Shown here one piece after another: positions 3,140 to 64,000 of a stretch of DNA of 64,000 nucleotides. Under the pieces are notes generated by a model. It saw nothing but the letters and a program-made list of their open reading frames with translations. It was not told the DNA's origin and ran no database searches. The stretch lies in assembly GCF_016903815.1 (NCBI RefSeq), contig NZ_CP069973.1, one strand, 5' to 3'. The stretch comes from Escherichia coli. Its GTDB lineage: Bacteria > Pseudomonadota > Gammaproteobacteria > Enterobacterales > Enterobacteriaceae. Numbering within the stretch: the stretch's first letter is position 1; the number at the start of each line of letters is the position of its first letter. The position numbers were made by a program, and so were the translations under genes.

Positions 3140-3319
3140 AATGCTCTCCTGTGCTTTTGGCATGAATCCATCAATAGTAGCAGGCTCGCAGGAATGGTTT
3201 TGTTTGCAGCCGTCACATCCCCTCTGCAACACGCAATAATTTCATCGAGGAATCCGTTGCTTCGGGCTGTTTTCGATAGTATTGATAACGTCATCATCAT
3301 TATTTAATCGAGGCCAAAC

Positions 3320-3838
3320 ATGTCCATCCGTTTTGCCCGCAAAGCCGACTGTGCTGCCATTGCGGAAATTTATAACCACGCCGTGTTGTATACGGCGGCT
3401 ATCTGGAATGACCAAACGGTGGATGCAGATAACCGCATTGCCTGGTTCGAAGCGCGGACTTTAGCAGGTTATCCAGTGCTGGTGAGCGAGGAAAACGGCG
3501 TAGTGACGGGATATGCCTCGTTTGGCGACTGGCGTAGTTTTGATGGTTTTCGCCATACCGTGGAACATTCGGTTTATGTCCATCCCGATCATCAGGGGAA
3601 AGGTCTGGGGCGTAAATTGTTAAGCCGATTGATTGATGAAGCGCGGGATTGCGGGAAGCATGTCATGGTCGCCGGGATCGAATCGCAAAATCAGGCCTCG
3701 CTGCATCTGCACCAGTCGCTGGGATTTGTCGTCACCGCACAAATGCCGCAGGTAGGCACTAAATTTGGTCGTTGGCTGGATCTGACATTTATGCAGTTGC
3801 AACTCGACGAGCGCACTGAACCGGACGCGATTGGATGA
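3320..3838 (+). CDS. mnaT: GNAT L-amino acid N-acyltransferase (methionine sulfoximine/sulfone acetyltransferase)
   Basis: 172 aa GNAT-fold ORF; synteny (yncA). Confidence 0.9.
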   Translation: MSIRFARKADCAAIAEIYNHAVLYTAAIWNDQTVDADNRIAWFEARTLAGYPVLVSEENGVVTGYASFGDWRSFDGFRHTVEHSVYVHPDHQGKGLGRKLLSRLIDEARDCGKHVMVAGIESQNQASLHLHQSLGFVVTAQMPQVGTKFGRWLDLTFMQLQLDERTEPDAIG

Positions 3839-4284
3839 ATCAGTCGCTTACCCTTGCTTTTTTGATTGCCGCCGGAATTGGTCTGGTGGTGCAAAACACG
3901 CTGATGGTGCGCATCACCCAGAGCTCCTCTACCATTCTCATCGCCATGTTGCTGAACTCTTTGGTAGGAATTGTGCTGTTCGTTTCTATTTTGTGGTTTA
4001 AACAAGGTATGGAGGGGTTTGGTGAACTGGTGTCCAGCGTGCGCTGGTGGACACTTATACCTGGCTTGCTGGGATCGTTTTTTGTCTTCGCCAGTATCAG
4101 CGGATATCAGAATGTGGGAGCGGCGACAACTATTGCGGTACTGGTCGCCAGCCAGCTGATTGGCGGTCTGGTGCTGGATATCTTCCGCAGCCATGGCGTA
4201 CCACTACGAGCGTTGATCGGCCCAATTTGTGGCGCAATTTTACTTGTGGTTGGCGCCTGGCTGGTGGCCAGACGCTCATTTTAA
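3835..4284 (+). CDS. ydcZ: DMT-superfamily inner membrane protein YdcZ
   Basis: 149 aa, 4-5 hydrophobic helices; overlaps mnaT stop by 4 nt. Confidence 0.85.
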   Translation: MNQSLTLAFLIAAGIGLVVQNTLMVRITQSSSTILIAMLLNSLVGIVLFVSILWFKQGMEGFGELVSSVRWWTLIPGLLGSFFVFASISGYQNVGAATTIAVLVASQLIGGLVLDIFRSHGVPLRALIGPICGAILLVVGAWLVARRSF

Positions 4285-4518
4285 TCAGAGGATGGTGCCG
4301 CCTTTGGTTAACTGTTCATGGCGCGCTTCCATATCTTCTTTATGTTTGCGACCGTGATGGGCGATCGCTGTGCGCAGACGCTGCTGCTGGGTATAGCGTT
4401 CTTCCCGACTTAACTCCGCATCATCGCTCAGGGCGATTAATAATTCGTTCATATGGGCAATGACGCTCTCTTCAATCGCGGCATCCACGCGCGCGATGAC
4501 TTCATCCAGATGCGACAT
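4285..4518 (-). CDS. ydcY: Small uncharacterized protein YdcY
   Basis: 77 aa charged ORF; synteny. Confidence 0.8.
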   Translation of the reverse strand: MSHLDEVIARVDAAIEESVIAHMNELLIALSDDAELSREERYTQQQRLRTAIAHHGRKHKEDMEARHEQLTKGGTIL

Positions 4519-4603
4519 ACTTTCTCCTTAGCCACTTGTGAAATTTATCGATTCATCCAAATGATATAAGTCTGCGTGGTGCCGTCAAGCCAGTGAGTAA
4601 GAT

Positions 4604-4777
4604 TTAAAACAGTGAAAACAACAGCGCCACCGGGAAACTCATCGGCCATGTTGCCCCCACCAGAAAGGCGCTTAAGAAACGGATGCGTTTCTTATCGTGA
4701 GAAAGAAACCAGGTGATAAGAAATGAGATTGCTGCCATAACCGCATAAAAAACAAGCATATGTTGATAGAGAGACAT
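4604..4777 (-). CDS. ortT: Orphan small membrane toxin OrtT (YdcX)
   Basis: ORF trimmed to internal Met (MSLYQHMLVFYAVMAAISFLITWF...), 57 aa, two predicted TM helices. Confidence 0.75.
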   Translation of the reverse strand: MSLYQHMLVFYAVMAAISFLITWFLSHDKKRIRFLSAFLVGATWPMSFPVALLFSLF

Positions 4778-4974
4778 GTACGGGCGTCCAGCCAGATGAA
4801 TAAAACGCGCGCAAATATGCGTCATTTTTTGACGTACATCAAGTTTTTTAACCGGTTTGAGAAAAAAACATCAAACAGCAACTTGCCCTTATCCATCTTC
4901 AGAATGAGTATTATTGCGGATTTTCTTAACCCGTACTATACACATAGGGGCAATGATAAAAGGTGGCAAAAATG

Positions 4975-17290: not shown

Positions 17291-17962
17291 AAATGCGCCT
17301 ATAAGGCTCTCTTACCAGCCGCGCCCTAACAGGCGCACACGATCTGACATTTGCATCCAACTTCGTTACTTACGGCCCGTAAACGGGCTGCCCGGATAGG
17401 GAATCGATAACTGCTCTCCCATTTTATCCTCTTCAAGCTGGTGCTTTATGTAATCCTGTATCTTCGCCGTGTTCTTACCCACCGTATCGACGTAGTACCC
17501 TCTGCACCAGAACTCCCTGTTCCTGTATTTGAATTTCAAATCACCAAACTGCTCGTAAAGCATCAGACTGCTTTTCCCTTTCAGATATCCCATAAAGCCG
17601 GATACGCTCATTTTGGGCGGGATCTCCACAAGCATATGGATATGATCTGCACAGCATTCAGCTTCCAGAATCCGTACACTTTTCCACTCACACAGCTTTC
17701 TCAAAATACTGCCTATTGCTCTACGCTTCTCTCTGTAGAACACCTGTCTTCGGTATTTTGGCGCAAAAACTATGTGATATTTACAGTTCCATCGGGTGTG
17801 CGCTAAGCTCTTTTCGTTCCCCATTGGGACCCCCTTTTGATTTCTTGTTTGACACTTGCAGTTGCCAGACCGCAAGGTGTTTTAACAAATCAAAAGGGGT
17901 TTTAATAACTGGCTTAAAGCTGAAAGCTTTCCGGAACCCCCAGCCTAGCTGGGGGTTTTCTG
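17291..17962 (-). mobile_element. IS200-type insertion sequence (IS200/IS605 family, tnpA only); boundaries approximate
   Basis: Y1/HUH TnpA ORF flanked by about 75 and 135 bp non-coding arms; perfect 10-bp stem hairpin aacccccagc/gctgggggtt at 17935-17957, like the IS200 left-end structure. Confidence 0.7.
17366..17824 (-). CDS. tnpA: IS200 transposase TnpA (Y1 HUH single-strand transposase)
   Basis: 152 aa MGNEKSLAHTRWNCKYHIVFAPKYRR...; HUH motif (HIHML) and catalytic Tyr region; ORF-track 169 aa form has upstream extension. Confidence 0.88.
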   Translation of the reverse strand: MGNEKSLAHTRWNCKYHIVFAPKYRRQVFYREKRRAIGSILRKLCEWKSVRILEAECCADHIHMLVEIPPKMSVSGFMGYLKGKSSLMLYEQFGDLKFKYRNREFWCRGYYVDTVGKNTAKIQDYIKHQLEEDKMGEQLSIPYPGSPFTGRK

Positions 17963-28658: not shown

Positions 28659-28959
28659 TACCGTTGTCTCTCGTCCAGGTTTACTCCTGATAGAAAGTCA
28701 TCGGCACTTGACGATAATTACTTATGACCAAAAACCTCTTTGCGTCACATTTTTACAACAATTATTGCAGAGAAAATTAATGCTATTGGAATGAAGAGAG
28801 TAACGAATGGCTAAACTGGCTAACCCGAATGACGAAAAATTCTGGAAAACAGCACGCAATTTCGTCAGGTGATTATTTTCGTCCCTAAGGAAACCACATA
28901 GGATGCTCACGGGTGCCTGAGACTTTCTGTTTTCAGGCTAACCGGGAATCAGAAAGACG

Positions 28960-29016
28960 AAGGCCCCGACCGATATTTCTATCAACCGAGGCCAACGAAT
29001 GAACCAAGCAATTCAG

Positions 29017-29030
<14 letters not shown>
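28960..29030 (-). ncRNA. sokB: Probable SokB antisense RNA (type I antitoxin); position approximate
   Basis: Inferred from hok/sok architecture: antisense to mokB start region; not delimited from sequence. Confidence 0.3.
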
Positions 29031-29206
<176 letters not shown>

Positions 29207-29621: not shown

Positions 29622-29685
29622 CTTCCGATGTAGACCCGTATTCTTCGCCTGTACCACGGGTCGGTTTTAGTACAGGCGTTTTCTT
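29622..29685 (+). ncRNA. rydC: Hfq-dependent small RNA RydC
   Basis: Matches recalled RydC sequence CTTCCGATGTAGACCCGTATTCTTCGCCTGTACCACGGGTCGGTTTTAGTACAGGCGTTTTCTT; ydcA-cybB intergenic as in K-12. Confidence 0.8.
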
Positions 29686-55515: not shown

Positions 55516-58151
55516 TGTTTTTCCTCACACTCTTTTCCTTGCGGACAGTCATTTCCCGGCAGACGTGCGTTCTGCTCCAACCATGCCTGGAGATTATCGC
55601 CAAAGCGTAAACTGCGCCACAGCGTAAAAATATTCTCTTCATGATGGTAATTAAGGTTTACCGTACCGCTTTTACCATCAACGCGACTGGTACCTGTAAT
55701 GTTGGCCTGCATGGTTAATAAACCGAGATTATCTAAATTAATATTTGTCGATGAACGGCTAATTTCCATATAGCGCAACCAGTTAATTGCTGAACCCGCA
55801 GTCATATTGTCTTTCACCACCGCATCTGCGGTGTCTTTATCCAGCCGCAAGGTCATTGGCCCGCTATTTGCCAGCCAACCATCTTTCACTATCCATTTTT
55901 CGTTGTTTAGCCATAACGGCAATGCACCACTAAATGCCCCGGACATGGCGAATTGTTTCGGATTGACGGCGCTAACCAGTTCGCTGGATGAGAGATTATT
56001 CAGCCGCAACAGCGCCGGGTCATGTTGCGGCATACGTAATTGTTTCATCAGCACGTTACCGCCTAACACATCGACGCTAACATCAGTCAACAGCAATGGT
56101 TCTTCTTCAGTCCACGGATAGCGCCCTTGCAAATCAGCCGTAATATTTTTCGCTGTCACCAGATTAATCACTTCGGCAATTCGCAACGTAACGGGGCCGC
56201 GAGTCCCCAGATGCCAGGCTCCATCGGCAAAACGGAAAGGCAGGACAAAATCGACACCGTTAACCTGATTATCTGGCATCCAGGCACTACCGCCTTTCAA
56301 CACGCCGTGCCCTCCCGCGCGGAATCCTTGTTCAGGCGCAGCAGAAAATGCAACCTGAGCATACAGTTCACCATCGCGTAAGTTCATCTTCCAGTCGGGT
56401 GGCACCAGCGGCTGGAATACAGTCAGTGATTGTTTAGGCCACCAGGCGTTACCGCGCAGACGAATACCGTCCCAGCGACCATTTACCCGAACCGGGCCAA
56501 TCTCACCAGCATGTAAATCGCCTTTAAAGAGGAAATACGTCGGATCGCGCCCATCGACGCTAAATTTTAAGGTTGATGGCGGTAACACACTGCCGCCAGT
56601 GAACAGCGTTTGCCCGGCGTCCAGTGACAGCGCGCCACTGAAGGAGGGATGCTGTGCGTCACGTACCCAGACGACGGGCTTGTCGAGAATTAATCGCGGC
56701 TTTTCTACCGTCATCGTACCGTATTGTAACTGGTCGAAACTGGTGGAGAGATCGGTCAGCGTAATCGTGCTGTCATGCCACTCACCCTTTCCTGCGACAT
56801 CCCAGGTGGCATTCATCGGTGTAAAACTGCCTTTTCCCCAGTAGCGCCACTGCCAGCGGCCAGCGTCAGGGAGAAAATCATTCGCCAGTCCATCCATATG
56901 CAGCACGAAATCGCCCAGTTCATTTTCATGCGCCTGCAAAATGGCCTGCAAACGTCCGTCAATACCACGTTGGGTGACTTTTACACCCGCTAAAGGCCAG
57001 CGGATTTCATCGATGTCCAGCGAATCAATGACTCTTCCCTTTGAACGAAGTAACGCGCCAGGCTCAAAGGCCAGCGTTGGGTCAGTCAGACTTCCGCTTA
57101 GCTGCGCAGGTAAACGGGCATATAAAATGAGGTCCGCCTGTTTCGCTTCACCGGTCAGTTGCATAGGCAGCTGGTTGTTATCCATGCTTAATTTTCCTGG
57201 GCCAAAATTAAGCACCGCGTTGCCTTTACCCGCTTGCCCCTGGGTCAGCACACTCAGTCGTCCGCTGACCAGAGCGTTCTCGAGCCCTGCCTGCCAGTTG
57301 TCGACTTTGACACCCAGTCGGCCACTCAAAGGAAAACCTGCATACGGCCAACTCCAGCGACCATCGCTTACGGTCAATTGTTGACGAGTAATTTGCCACG
57401 GCAAATCGAGCAACGGATCGCCGTTATCCCGTGCCAGCACAATCAATTGCCCGCTATTTTCCAACCAGTCCAGCTCGGCATCCACCAGTGACGGTTCCTG
57501 CGGCAAGTTTAACGTCGCAGTAGCATGACCACTTACAGGAAGTCCATCCGGCACTAGCGGCATAGTAAATTCCCCCACCAGTTTTACCGGCGGCTGATTT
57601 TCAAACGCGACGACATCCAGTTCGCTGACTGTAAGTTGTTGCCCTTTCAGCTGGCCTTGAAATTTAACTTTTTCGCCCTGATAACGCAGTTGCTGGATAT
57701 CGGAGTTTAATGCGAGAGAGAGTTTTCCCTGCCATTCCTGCCAGGGAGAAAAAATTAGTTTATCGATATTGATCCAGGTGTTAGGCAACATGGCCTGCCA
57801 CTGCGCGAGGGTTTTTGGAGCGGCAGGCGATTGCTCCGTCTGCGGCAATTTCGCCAGACAAGCAGAATCAAGTTCTACCGTGCCGACGTTCAATAACCAG
57901 CGGCTCGGATGTGAAAGGCTGGCGTTGGTGATATGCGCAAGCTGACAATCTCCCACCAGATAACGGAGATCGGGAATGATTAAACCTTTACGCGTAATGC
58001 GTGGGCTTTCATCTAATGCAATACGTGTCCCGAGCGGTAGCCAGATGCCCGCCAGTGTGGGAACCCACAAGCCGAGCGTCATCAGCAGCGTCAACGGCAC
58101 AAGAATAATCAGTAATAACAGCGCGAGAACGGCTTTATATTTACCCAGCAT
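55512..58151 (-). CDS. ydbH: AsmA-like envelope protein YdbH
   Basis: 879 aa with N-terminal TM anchor; first gene of ydbH-ynbE-ydbL operon. Confidence 0.9.
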   Translation of the reverse strand: MLGKYKAVLALLLLIILVPLTLLMTLGLWVPTLAGIWLPLGTRIALDESPRITRKGLIIPDLRYLVGDCQLAHITNASLSHPSRWLLNVGTVELDSACLAKLPQTEQSPAAPKTLAQWQAMLPNTWINIDKLIFSPWQEWQGKLSLALNSDIQQLRYQGEKVKFQGQLKGQQLTVSELDVVAFENQPPVKLVGEFTMPLVPDGLPVSGHATATLNLPQEPSLVDAELDWLENSGQLIVLARDNGDPLLDLPWQITRQQLTVSDGRWSWPYAGFPLSGRLGVKVDNWQAGLENALVSGRLSVLTQGQAGKGNAVLNFGPGKLSMDNNQLPMQLTGEAKQADLILYARLPAQLSGSLTDPTLAFEPGALLRSKGRVIDSLDIDEIRWPLAGVKVTQRGIDGRLQAILQAHENELGDFVLHMDGLANDFLPDAGRWQWRYWGKGSFTPMNATWDVAGKGEWHDSTITLTDLSTSFDQLQYGTMTVEKPRLILDKPVVWVRDAQHPSFSGALSLDAGQTLFTGGSVLPPSTLKFSVDGRDPTYFLFKGDLHAGEIGPVRVNGRWDGIRLRGNAWWPKQSLTVFQPLVPPDWKMNLRDGELYAQVAFSAAPEQGFRAGGHGVLKGGSAWMPDNQVNGVDFVLPFRFADGAWHLGTRGPVTLRIAEVINLVTAKNITADLQGRYPWTEEEPLLLTDVSVDVLGGNVLMKQLRMPQHDPALLRLNNLSSSELVSAVNPKQFAMSGAFSGALPLWLNNEKWIVKDGWLANSGPMTLRLDKDTADAVVKDNMTAGSAINWLRYMEISRSSTNINLDNLGLLTMQANITGTSRVDGKSGTVNLNYHHEENIFTLWRSLRFGDNLQAWLEQNARLPGNDCPQGKECEEKQ

Positions 58152-58358
58152 GGGTAGTTAATATCCTGATTTAGCGAAAAATTAAGCATTCAATACGGGT
58201 ATTGTGGCATGTTTAACCGTTCAGTTGAAGGTTGCGCCTACACTAAGCATAGTTGTTGATGAATTTTTCAATATCGCCATAGCTTTCAATTATATTTGAA
58301 ATTTTGTAAAATATTTTTAGTAGCTTAAATGTGATTCAACATCACTGGAGAAAGTCTT

Positions 58359-59348
58359 ATGAAACTCGCCGTTTATAGCACAAAACAGTACGACAAGAAG
58401 TACCTGCAACAGGTGAACGAGTCCTTTGGCTTTGAGCTGGAATTTTTTGACTTTCTGCTGACGGAAAAAACCGCTAAAACCGCCAATGGCTGCGAAGCGG
58501 TATGTATTTTCGTAAACGATGACGGCAGCCGCCCGGTGCTGGAAGAGCTGAAAAAGCACGGCGTTAAATATATCGCCCTGCGCTGTGCCGGTTTCAATAA
58601 CGTCGACCTTGACGCGGCAAAAGAACTGGGGCTGAAAGTAGTCCGTGTTCCAGCCTATGATCCAGAAGCCGTTGCTGAACACGCCATCGGTATGATGATG
58701 ACGCTGAACCGCCGTATTCATCGAGCGTATCAGCGTACTCGTGACGCCAACTTCTCTCTGGAAGGTCTGACCGGCTTTACTATGTATGGCAAAACGGCAG
58801 GCGTTATCGGTACCGGTAAAATCGGTGTGGCGATGCTGCGCATTCTGAAAGGTTTTGGTATGCGTCTGCTGGCGTTCGATCCGTATCCAAGTGCGGCGGC
58901 ACTGGAACTCGGTGTGGAGTATGTCGATCTGCCAACCCTGTTCTCTGAATCAGACGTTATCTCTCTGCACTGCCCGCTGACACCGGAAAACTACCATCTG
59001 TTGAACGAAGCCGCCTTCGATCAGATGAAAAATGGCGTGATGATCGTCAATACCAGTCGCGGTGCATTGATTGATTCTCAGGCGGCAATTGAAGCGCTGA
59101 AAAATCAGAAAATTGGTTCGTTGGGTATGGACGTGTATGAGAACGAACGCGATCTGTTCTTTGAAGACAAATCCAACGACGTGATCCAGGATGACGTGTT
59201 CCGTCGTCTGTCTGCCTGCCACAACGTGCTGTTTACCGGGCACCAGGCATTCCTGACAGCAGAAGCACTGACCAGTATTTCTCAGACTACGCTGCAAAAC
59301 TTAAGCAATCTGGAAAAAGGCGAAACCTGCCCGAACGAACTGGTTTAA
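58359..59348 (+). CDS. ldhA: Fermentative D-lactate dehydrogenase (NAD-dependent)
   Basis: 329 aa D-2-hydroxyacid dehydrogenase; NAD motif GVIGTGKIG. Confidence 0.93.
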   Translation: MKLAVYSTKQYDKKYLQQVNESFGFELEFFDFLLTEKTAKTANGCEAVCIFVNDDGSRPVLEELKKHGVKYIALRCAGFNNVDLDAAKELGLKVVRVPAYDPEAVAEHAIGMMMTLNRRIHRAYQRTRDANFSLEGLTGFTMYGKTAGVIGTGKIGVAMLRILKGFGMRLLAFDPYPSAAALELGVEYVDLPTLFSESDVISLHCPLTPENYHLLNEAAFDQMKNGVMIVNTSRGALIDSQAAIEALKNQKIGSLGMDVYENERDLFFEDKSNDVIQDDVFRRLSACHNVLFTGHQAFLTAEALTSISQTTLQNLSNLEKGETCPNELV

Positions 59349-59458
59349 TCTTGCCGCTCCCCTGCATTCCAGGGGAGCTGATTCAGATAATCCCCAATGA
59401 CCTTTCATCCTCTATTCTTAAAATAGTCCTGAGTCAGAAACTGTAATTGAGAACCACA

Positions 59459-59881
59459 ATGAAGAAAGTAGCCGCGTTTGTTGCGCTAAGCCTGCTGATG
59501 GCGGGATGTGTAAGTAATGACAAAATTGCTGTAACCCCAGAACAGCTACAGCATCATCGCTTTGTGCTGGAAAGCGTAAACGGTAAGCCCGTGACCAGCG
59601 ATAAAAATCCGCCAGAAATCAGCTTTGGTGAAAAAATGATGATTTCCGGCAGCATGTGTAACCGCTTTAGCGGTGAAGGCAAACTGTCTAATGGTAAACT
59701 GACAGCCAAAGGGCTGGCAATGACCCGTATGATGTGCGCTAACCCGCAGCTTAATGAACTCGATAACACCATTAGCGAAATGCTGAAAGAAGGTGCACAA
59801 GTGGATCTGACCGCGAACCAGTTAACGCTGGCGACCGCGAAACAGACATTAACTTATAAGCTAGCGGATTTAATGAATTAA
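59459..59881 (+). CDS. hslJ: Heat-shock lipoprotein HslJ
   Basis: Start trimmed to MKKVAAFVALSLLMAGC (lipobox), 140 aa; META domain. Confidence 0.85.
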   Translation: MKKVAAFVALSLLMAGCVSNDKIAVTPEQLQHHRFVLESVNGKPVTSDKNPPEISFGEKMMISGSMCNRFSGEGKLSNGKLTAKGLAMTRMMCANPQLNELDNTISEMLKEGAQVDLTANQLTLATAKQTLTYKLADLMN

Positions 59882-60144
59882 TAGCTGCCACAGCTCCCGG
59901 CGGCAAGTGACTGTTCGCTACAGCGTTTGCCGTTGGGTAATGCACACATCCCAATCGCCGTACCATCCAGTTGACGGGCAACAGAAAGCGAACCGCCGAT
60001 CATTGCACAATTTGCTTCTCCACTACTGGACATCGACGCTTTTAAACCTGGCGCTACGTGCGCCGCAGTCGCCTGCTGAACAGGTTCACTACTACACGCC
60101 GACAACAATAAAGCGGCACACCCTACCCAAAACGCTGCTCGCAT
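59878..60144 (-). CDS. ydbJ: DUF333 lipoprotein YdbJ
   Basis: 88 aa with lipobox LLSAC; synteny. Confidence 0.8.
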   Translation of the reverse strand: MRAAFWVGCAALLLSACSSEPVQQATAAHVAPGLKASMSSSGEANCAMIGGSLSVARQLDGTAIGMCALPNGKRCSEQSLAAGSCGSY

Positions 60145-60417
60145 CTTTTCTTCCTCTGATCTTCAAGCCAAACGACACCGCCATAAATAATAGGCAGCAC
60201 AGAGGGCGGCGTCGAGAGCTGTCCTGCGCGTTGCCCCGCATTTTTACTTTTTTATGGCTATTTTTTTGCCCTCTGTTTGATCAAAACATTCATTACGCTG
60301 ATGAGGGGGACACAAAAGCGAAAATGCAGAAGAAAGCCATTTGCTAAAATTGAAGGATTACTACTGGGCGCGCAGCAATTTCGTGCGCCCCTCATTTGCG
60401 CAATGTAAGGGTGTCAT

Positions 60418-63400
60418 ATGATTACTATTGACGGTAATGGCGCGGTTGCTTCGGTGGCGTTTCGCACCAGTGAAGTTATCGCCATCTACCCTATTACCCC
60501 CAGTTCCACGATGGCAGAACAGGCTGATGCATGGGCCGGAAACGGCTTGAAGAACGTTTGGGGAGACACACCACGCGTGGTTGAAATGCAGTCGGAAGCG
60601 GGGGCTATCGCTACCGTGCATGGCGCTTTGCAGACGGGTGCCCTTTCAACATCGTTTACGTCATCGCAGGGTTTGCTGCTGATGATCCCGACGCTGTACA
60701 AACTGGCAGGCGAACTGACGCCATTTGTCCTGCATGTAGCGGCACGTACCGTTGCCACACATGCACTCTCTATTTTTGGCGATCATTCCGACGTTATGGC
60801 GGTGCGCCAGACGGGTTGCGCGATGTTGTGTGCGGCAAACGTCCAGGAAGCGCAAGACTTTGCTCTTATTTCGCACATCGCGACGCTGAAGAGTCGCGTG
60901 CCATTTATTCATTTCTTTGATGGTTTCCGCACGTCCCACGAAATCAATAAAATTGTCCCGCTGGCCGATGACACGATTCTTGAACTGATACCGCAGGCCG
61001 AAATTGATGCCCACCGCGCCCGCGCGCTGAATCCGGAGCATCCGGTGATTCGTGGTACCTCGGCTAACCCGGACACCTATTTCCAGTCACGTGAAGCCAC
61101 CAACCCGTGGTACAACGCAGTTTACGACCATGTTGAACAGGCGATGAATGATTTCTCTGCCGCGACAGGTCGTCAGTATCAGCCGTTTGAGTATTACGGG
61201 CATCCGCAAGCGGAACGGGTGATTATCCTGATGGGCTCTGCCATTGGCACCTGTGAAGAAGTGGTTGATGAATTGCTAACCCGTGGCGAAAAAGTCGGCG
61301 TGCTGAAAGTTCGCCTGTACCGTCCCTTCTCCGCCAAACACTTGCTACAAGCTCTGCCGGGATCCGTACGCAGCGTGGCGGTACTGGACAGAACCAAAGA
61401 ACCCGGTGCCCAGGCTGAACCGCTCTATCTGGATGTGATGACCGCACTGGCAGAAGCCTTTAATAATGGCGAGCGCGAAACCCTGCCCCGTGTCATTGGT
61501 GGGCGCTATGGTCTTTCATCCAAAGAATTTGGCCCGGACTGTGTACTGGCGGTATTTGCCGAGCTCAACGCGGCTAAACCGAAAGCGCGCTTTACGGTTG
61601 GTATTTACGATGATGTGACCAATCTGTCACTGCCGTTGCCGGAAAACACCCTGCCAAACTCGGCGAAACTTGAAGCCTTGTTTTATGGCCTTGGTAGCGA
61701 TGGCAGCGTTTCCGCGACCAAAAACAATATCAAGATTATCGGTAATTCCACGCCGTGGTACGCACAGGGCTATTTTGTTTACGACTCCAAAAAGGCGGGC
61801 GGCCTGACGGTTTCTCACCTTCGCGTGAGCGAACAGCCGATTCGTTCCGCTTATCTCATTTCCCAGGCTGATTTTGTTGGCTGCCACCAGTTGCAGTTTA
61901 TCGATAAATATCAGATGGCTGAGCGTTTAAAACCTTGCGGCATTTTCCTGCTCAACACGCCGTACAGCGCAGATGAAGTGTGGTCGCGCTTGCCGCAAGA
62001 AGTTCAGGCCGTGTTAAACCAGAAAAAAGCGCGCTTCTATGTGATTAACGCGGCGAAAATCGCCCGCGAATGTGGCCTGGCGGCCCGTATTAATACCGTC
62101 ATGCAGATGGCTTTTTTCCATCTTACGCAAATTCTGCCTGGCGATAGCGCCCTCGCAGAATTGCAGGGTGCGATTGCCAAAAGTTACAGTAGCAAAGGTC
62201 AGGATCTGGTGGAACGCAACTGGCAGGCTCTGGCGCTGGCACGTGAATCCGTAGAAGAAGTTCCGCTGCAGCCGGTTAATCCGCACAGCGCCAATCGACC
62301 GCCAGTGGTTTCCGATGCCGCCCCTGATTTCGTGAAAACCGTAACCGCGGCGATGCTCGCCGGGCTTGGTGATGCCCTCCCCGTTTCGGCGCTGCCGCCA
62401 GACGGCACCTGGCCGATGGGCACCACGCGCTGGGAAAAACGCAATATCGCCGAAGAGATCCCCATCTGGAAAGAGGAACTCTGTACCCAATGTAACCACT
62501 GCGTCGCCGCTTGCCCACACTCAGCTATTCGCGCAAAAGTGGTGCCGCCTGAAGCGATGGAAAACGCCCCTGCCAGCCTGCATTCGCTGGATGTGAAATC
62601 GCGTGATATGCGCGGGCAGAAATATGTCTTGCAGGTGGCTCCGGAAGATTGCACCGGTTGTAACCTGTGCGTCGAAGTTTGCCCGGCGAAAGACCGTCAG
62701 AATCCAGAGATTAAAGCCATCAATATGATGTCGCGGCTGGAACATGTCGAAGAAGAGAAAATCAATTACGATTTCTTCCTCAACCTGCCAGAAATCGACC
62801 GTAGCAAACTGGAACGTATTGATATTCGTACATCGCAGCTGATTACACCGCTGTTTGAATATTCCGGTGCTTGCTCCGGTTGTGGCGAGACGCCGTATAT
62901 TAAATTGCTGACTCAGCTCTATGGCGACCGGATGTTGATCGCTAACGCCACCGGCTGTTCTTCAATTTATGGCGGTAACCTGCCCTCTACACCGTATACC
63001 ACCGATACCAACGGTCGCGGGCCGGCATGGGCGAACTCTCTATTTGAAGATAATGCCGAATTTGGCCTTGGTTTCCGCCTGACGGTCGATCAACACCGTG
63101 TCCGCGTGCTGCGTCTGCTGGATCAATTTGCCGATAAAATCCCGGCGGAATTACTGACTGCGTTGAAATCAGACGCCACGCCAGAGGTTCGTCGAGAACA
63201 GGTCGCAGCTTTACGCCAGCAACTCAACGATGTTGCCGAAGCACATGAACTGCTACGTGACGCAGATGCACTGGTGGAAAAATCAATCTGGCTGATTGGT
63301 GGCGACGGCTGGGCTTACGATATCGGCTTTGGCGGTCTGGATCATGTATTGAGTTTGACGGAAAACGTCAACATTCTGGTGCTGGATACGCAATGCTATT

Positions 63401-63942
63401 CCAATACCGGTGGTCAGGCGTCAAAAGCCACGCCGCTTGGCGCGGTGACTAAGTTTGGCGAGCACGGCAAACGTAAAGCGCGTAAAGATCTTGGCGTCAG
63501 TATGATGATGTACGGTCATGTTTATGTGGCGCAGATTTCTCTCGGCGCGCAGCTGAACCAGACGGTGAAAGCGATTCAGGAAGCGGAAGCGTATCCGGGG
63601 CCATCGCTGATCATTGCTTATAGCCCGTGTGAAGAGCATGGTTACGATCTGGCACTCAGCCACGACCAGATGCGCCAACTCACTGCCACCGGCTTCTGGC
63701 CGCTATATCGCTTCGATCCACGTCGAGCCGATGAAGGCAAACTGCCGCTGGCACTGGATTCACGCCCGCCGTCAGAAGCACTGGAAGAAACGTTACTTCA
63801 CGAGCAGCGTTTCCGTCGTCTGAATTCGCAGCAGCCAGAAGTGGCAGAACAGTTATGGAAAGATGCTGCAGCTGATTTGCAAAAACGCTATGACTTCCTG
63901 GCACAAATGGCCGGAAAAGCGGAAAAAAGCAACACCGATTAA
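60418..63942 (+). CDS. ydbK: Pyruvate:flavodoxin/ferredoxin oxidoreductase (PFOR, YdbK)
   Basis: 1174 aa; two 4Fe-4S ferredoxin motifs (CTQCNHCVAACP, CTGCNLCVEVCP); TPP-binding GGDGW motif. Confidence 0.93.
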   Translation: MITIDGNGAVASVAFRTSEVIAIYPITPSSTMAEQADAWAGNGLKNVWGDTPRVVEMQSEAGAIATVHGALQTGALSTSFTSSQGLLLMIPTLYKLAGELTPFVLHVAARTVATHALSIFGDHSDVMAVRQTGCAMLCAANVQEAQDFALISHIATLKSRVPFIHFFDGFRTSHEINKIVPLADDTILELIPQAEIDAHRARALNPEHPVIRGTSANPDTYFQSREATNPWYNAVYDHVEQAMNDFSAATGRQYQPFEYYGHPQAERVIILMGSAIGTCEEVVDELLTRGEKVGVLKVRLYRPFSAKHLLQALPGSVRSVAVLDRTKEPGAQAEPLYLDVMTALAEAFNNGERETLPRVIGGRYGLSSKEFGPDCVLAVFAELNAAKPKARFTVGIYDDVTNLSLPLPENTLPNSAKLEALFYGLGSDGSVSATKNNIKIIGNSTPWYAQGYFVYDSKKAGGLTVSHLRVSEQPIRSAYLISQADFVGCHQLQFIDKYQMAERLKPCGIFLLNTPYSADEVWSRLPQEVQAVLNQKKARFYVINAAKIARECGLAARINTVMQMAFFHLTQILPGDSALAELQGAIAKSYSSKGQDLVERNWQALALARESVEEVPLQPVNPHSANRPPVVSDAAPDFVKTVTAAMLAGLGDALPVSALPPDGTWPMGTTRWEKRNIAEEIPIWKEELCTQCNHCVAACPHSAIRAKVVPPEAMENAPASLHSLDVKSRDMRGQKYVLQVAPEDCTGCNLCVEVCPAKDRQNPEIKAINMMSRLEHVEEEKINYDFFLNLPEIDRSKLERIDIRTSQLITPLFEYSGACSGCGETPYIKLLTQLYGDRMLIANATGCSSIYGGNLPSTPYTTDTNGRGPAWANSLFEDNAEFGLGFRLTVDQHRVRVLRLLDQFADKIPAELLTALKSDATPEVRREQVAALRQQLNDVAEAHELLRDADALVEKSIWLIGGDGWAYDIGFGGLDHVLSLTENVNILVLDTQCYSNTGGQASKATPLGAVTKFGEHGKRKARKDLGVSMMMYGHVYVAQISLGAQLNQTVKAIQEAEAYPGPSLIIAYSPCEEHGYDLALSHDQMRQLTATGFWPLYRFDPRRADEGKLPLALDSRPPSEALEETLLHEQRFRRLNSQQPEVAEQLWKDAAADLQKRYDFLAQMAGKAEKSNTD

Positions 63943-63970
63943 ATGCACTGGATAAGGATTATCCAATTCT

Positions 63971-64000
63971 AAAAAAAAGCCCGGACGACTGTTCGGGCTT
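63971..64000 (-). ncRNA. micC: 3' terminal hairpin of MicC sRNA (partial; rest lies beyond window end)
   Basis: Reverse complement aagcccgaacagtcgtccgggcttttttttt matches recalled MicC terminator; located just past the ydbK stop, consistent with micC lying between ydbK and ompN. Confidence 0.55.

Follow-up and report, generated by a model that had tools for sequence, protein, structure and literature searches.

Assignment of a terminator hairpin at the edge of an Escherichia coli genomic window to the small RNA gene micC

The small RNA (sRNA) MicC was reportedly described in 2004 by Chen, Zhang, Blyn and Storz. PMC5745476, with reference to Chen et al. 2004 and Zhang et al. 2003, gives MicC a length of 109 nt, an association with Hfq and a gene opposite ompN; by pairing over 22 bp with the 5' leader of ompC, close to the start codon, it prevents 30S binding and so represses OmpC. 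An analogous architecture is given in the same source for ompC–micF, in which the sRNA, likewise dependent on Hfq, is divergent from one porin gene and represses another porin by pairing near the ribosome-binding site; MicF differs from MicC in its sequence, its locus and its target (ompF). In MG1655, micC (b4427, 111 nt) is a curated ncRNA located between ompN and ydbK, and it scores 125 bits against the Rfam MicC model (RF00121), for which the gathering score is 90 bits.

Here, a stretch of 64,000 nt of E. coli DNA, hereafter the window, was analysed at its far end. We assign positions 63971–64000 with great confidence to the terminator of micC, a trans-acting Hfq-associated sRNA gene on the minus strand, with the source genome presumably continuing likewise past the edge. 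The properties that identify MicC were observed, namely an extension scoring above the gathering threshold, the terminator, synteny, and complementarity between the seed and the K-12 ompC leader. The locus shares with b4427 its place after the nifJ/ydbK stop, its divergence from ompN and the same strand logic, as well as the terminator sequence and, in genomes identical to the window end, the off-window 5' seed of K-12; it differs from b4427 in that only the last 30 nt lie inside the window. The gene is already known and ordinary. An annotation of the window should list a truncated micC on the minus strand, with the terminator treated as neither an orphan nor a part of nifJ. The coordinates of the features are collected in Table 1.

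Table 1. Features at the end of the window, with their positions, strand and supporting evidence.
Feature	Position	Strand	Evidence
nifJ/ydbK, pyruvate:ferredoxin(flavodoxin) oxidoreductase, 1174 aa	60418..63942	+	ORF, TIGR02176, RefSeq annotation
Spacer, 28 nt, from the nifJ stop to the MicC 3' end	63943..63970	.	Sequence, Rfam, MG1655 comparison
micC 3' end: terminator hairpin and U8 tail, 30 of ~110 nt	63971..64000	-	Sequence, Rfam, MG1655 identity, identical genomes
Terminator stem-loop	63977..64000	-	RNA fold, Rfam consensus structure line
Run of eight U	63971..63978	-	Sequence

Structure of the hairpin and its surroundings

The gene preceding the hairpin was identified by a match of 1631.6 bits to TIGR02176 (cutoff 911), and is named nifJ in the RefSeq annotation of identical genomes and ydbK in MG1655. 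It is convergent with micC and was used as a flanking landmark that lies outside the sRNA. The spacer that follows it differs from that of MG1655 at one base, and the Rfam MicC model reaches 8 nt into it (to 63963). The spacer also contains a small AT-rich palindrome, GGATAA-GGA-TTATCC, at 63951–63965, which is conserved in MG1655 and of which the 3' flank of the MicC model shares only the last three bases (63963–63965).

On the plus strand, the last 30 nt of the window read AAAAAAAAGCCCGGACGACTGTTCGGGCTT, the reverse complement of which, AAGCCCGAACAGTCGTCCGGGCTTTTTTTT, consists of a hairpin followed by a U-run. As minus-strand RNA, the element is AAGCCCGAACAGUCGUCCGGGCUUUUUUUU, that is, a stem, a loop and eight U. 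The 5' arm of the stem spans 64000–63991 (AAGCCCGAAC), the 4-nt loop (AGUC) spans 63990–63987, and the 3' arm spans 63986–63977 (GUCCGGGCUU), all on the minus strand; the stem comprises 10 positions with one internal A.C mismatch, and at its base AA is paired with the first two of the eight U. When folded alone, the minus-strand 30-mer yielded −11.9 kcal/mol (z −3.63), compared with −4.7 ± 2.0 kcal/mol for dinucleotide shuffles, none of which folded as well (0/200). This minus-strand hairpin with its U8 run is an intrinsic (Rho-independent) terminator. A simple terminator pattern scan over positions 4300–4900 of the corresponding locus of strain 7/2 (L001, see below) returned no match, because that scan requires a perfect stem (with a loop of at most 8 nt) and the present stem carries the A.C mismatch.

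The original prediction had taken these 30 nt for the reverse complement of the MicC 3' stem-loop and U-tract, situated just downstream of the ydbK stop. Both points were borne out: the annotated 3' end of MG1655 micC aligns exactly with window position 63971, every base of the 30-mer is identical to it except for the tail, which has eight U here and nine in K-12, and the element starts 28 nt after the TAA stop at 63940–63942. Judged from the sequence, the U8 run is the predicted termination signal of micC. In Hfq-dependent sRNAs, the proximal face of Hfq binds a module formed by the terminator hairpin and the 3' oligo-U, and by analogy the U8 run would also be the 3' poly-U bound by this protein.

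The plus strand and the nifJ direction

The position of the hairpin also admits a reading from the other strand, in which it mainly terminates or stabilises the 3' end of the nifJ/ydbK mRNA and its likeness to the MicC terminator is secondary; in a weaker version, it is bidirectional and serves both genes. This reading, which we consider rather unlikely, draws on the short distance from the nifJ stop, on the plus-strand stem, which is a perfect 10 bp since the A.C mismatch becomes G.U, and on a plus-strand local fold of −25.4 kcal/mol (z −3.9). Downstream of the plus-strand stem comes GUCUCAUUAUUUG instead of a U-tract, and the element is therefore not a canonical terminator in the nifJ direction, whereas on the minus strand the eight U follow directly. 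Moreover, the element falls within micC according to both the match to the full MicC model and the curated annotation of the gene. A dual role of the hairpin is compatible with its assignment to MicC. The plus-strand stem, at window 63977–64000, continues in L001 (strain 7/2) at 4477–4515.

Fabrega et al., cited in PMC5745476, reportedly described, in 2012, a SoxS-dependent co-regulation of ompN and ydbK, which could fit read-through of the hairpin rather than efficient termination and would in that case likewise count against a nifJ terminator. The plus-strand hairpin might then be a leaky nifJ terminator or a 3' stabiliser, such that induced transcription of nifJ/ydbK (for example by SoxS) would read antisense to micC into ompN; we regard this scenario, which draws on the plus-strand fold and on the reported co-regulation, as distinctly unlikely. 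If it were true, the induction of ydbK under oxidative stress would be coupled to a lower output of MicC and to expression of OmpN.

Rfam matches and extension into identical genomes

A permissive Rfam scan of window positions 58000–64000 returned MicC (RF00121) as the top match, at 63963–64000 on the minus strand and covering model positions 86–123 of 123, with 33.5 bits and an E-value of 0.041 for this 6-kb search; the match was flagged as cut at the RNA 5' end. The score is below the gathering score because 85 of the 123 model positions fall past the window edge. The terminators of three unrelated families, Betaproteobacteria_toxic_sRNA, Thr_leader and anti-hemB, match the same bases at E-values of 2–7, and were rejected as generic terminator resemblance. 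Further matches elsewhere in the scanned region, to MIR530, a snoRNA and a Brucella sRNA (E > 4), were dismissed as chance matches. By themselves, the 30 nt are suggestive of MicC and not diagnostic. The sub-threshold score and the three competing families would fit a generic terminator that resembles that of MicC by chance, or a remnant left after an IS insertion or deletion of the MicC body beyond the edge. Against this stand the identity of the bases to the micC 3' end, their conserved position after nifJ and their single-copy occurrence (see below), and we hold such an origin to be extremely improbable.

A comparison of the final 1500 bases of the window with all complete E. coli genomes (n = 5426) located them once per genome in 5412, many with 100% identity. 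Three genomes were selected for reading past the edge: strain 7/2 (L001), which is 100% identical over these 1500 bases, and AR_0015 (L003) and strain 2779 (L004), in both of which the 100% identity extends over the final 25 kb of the window. Past the equivalent of window position 64000, strain 7/2 continues as GTCTCATTATTTGTTGGAAAATCAG...GGCATATAACC. A full-length MicC, spanning model positions 1–123, was detected at 4463–4583 of this locus on the minus strand (122.1 bits, E 9e-21), and the same full-length MicC, with 122.1 bits against the gathering score of 90, was found in AR_0015 and strain 2779. In all three, MicC lies on the strand opposite to nifJ. That micC is cut by the boundary of the window and not biologically, as had been proposed along with extension and a run of the MicC model as the check, is upheld by these three genomes, which are identical to the window end and run straight into the complete sRNA; their intact MicC also argues against a remnant. 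MicC was the only Rfam family to reach its gathering score at this locus, and MicF was not among the matches. In strain 7/2, 226 nt separate the 5' end of micC from the ompN start codon, with the two genes divergent; the ompN side of the locus is present in the three genomes and in MG1655, and the nifJ side is in the window.

None of the RefSeq/PGAP records of the three genomes carries a micC feature (L001 at 4471–4581, L003 and L004 at 163–283) despite the 122 bits, and among the genomes sampled micC is annotated only in the curated MG1655 record. Automated annotation would accordingly miss micC even when the gene is complete.

The off-window MicC of this lineage differs from that of K-12 at five positions (GCAUUGCC → GCGUUGCU and CAUAUAAAAAG → CAAAUAAUGAG; L001 4471–4581 compared with L002 2122–2232), which correspond to the central loop and linker; the seed and the terminator stem are unaffected. 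Strain 7/2 and K-12 have identical sequences over the first 22 nt of MicC. The seed lies wholly outside the window, the in-window part being devoid of it. Its pairing was computed with RNAduplex using the first 30 nt of MicC (of which nt 1–22 form the duplex) as query and the K-12 ompC leader as target, which resulted in an interrupted duplex of −26.2 kcal/mol that covers −46 to −15 of the leader, counted from the AUG. With mononucleotide shuffling of the 30 nt, the mean was −14.3 kcal/mol (sd 2.7), and one of 500 shuffles reached −27.9 kcal/mol, so the energy of the duplex does not decide the matter by itself.

In the proposed mechanism, transcription of micC would start ~80 nt past the window edge, enter the window and stop at ~63971. 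The 5' 22 nt would anneal to the leader of ompC immediately before the ribosome-binding site, whereby 30S binding would be blocked and less OmpC porin produced. The in-window part would end the transcript, and its hairpin and poly-U would be the Hfq-bound module that shields the sRNA from 3' exonucleases.

Conservation and disruption of the locus

Of the 5426 complete E. coli genomes, 5412 contain one copy each of the 38-mer at the window edge (63963–64000); it is single-copy and therefore locus-specific, as opposed to a generic repeated terminator. A 500-mer comprising the end of nifJ, micC and the start of ompN was covered to at least 80% in 5359 genomes, and was not intact (<80%) in 53 of 5412, about 1%. 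One of the disrupted cases is EM18-18-42 (L005, NZ_CP063473.1), in which an IS1B at 3177–3930 has taken the place of the micC 5' part together with the ompN 5' end; the MicC 3' remnant is kept alone beside nifJ, and Rfam gave no MicC match at the gathering score at this locus. This is exactly the kind of remnant considered above for the window, against which the intact junction in 5359 of the 5412 genomes has to be set. Going by the population frequency, the source genome would almost certainly carry an intact MicC past position 64000, and the more so given the identical lineage.

Over a longer range, positions 39001–64000 of the window were covered to at least 80% in one place in 485 of the 5426 complete E. 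coli genomes. This segment holds genes for autotransporters and pectate-lyase-fold proteins as well as ydbH, ydbD and ynbC, and from this coverage and gene content, it is variable in part. Within the window, three other small RNAs attain their Rfam gathering scores: STnc490 at 17834–17957 on the minus strand (146 bits), the sok antitoxin RNA of a hok/sok-type module at 28911–29062 on the plus strand (111.5 bits), and RydC at 29622–29685 on the plus strand (92.5 bits).
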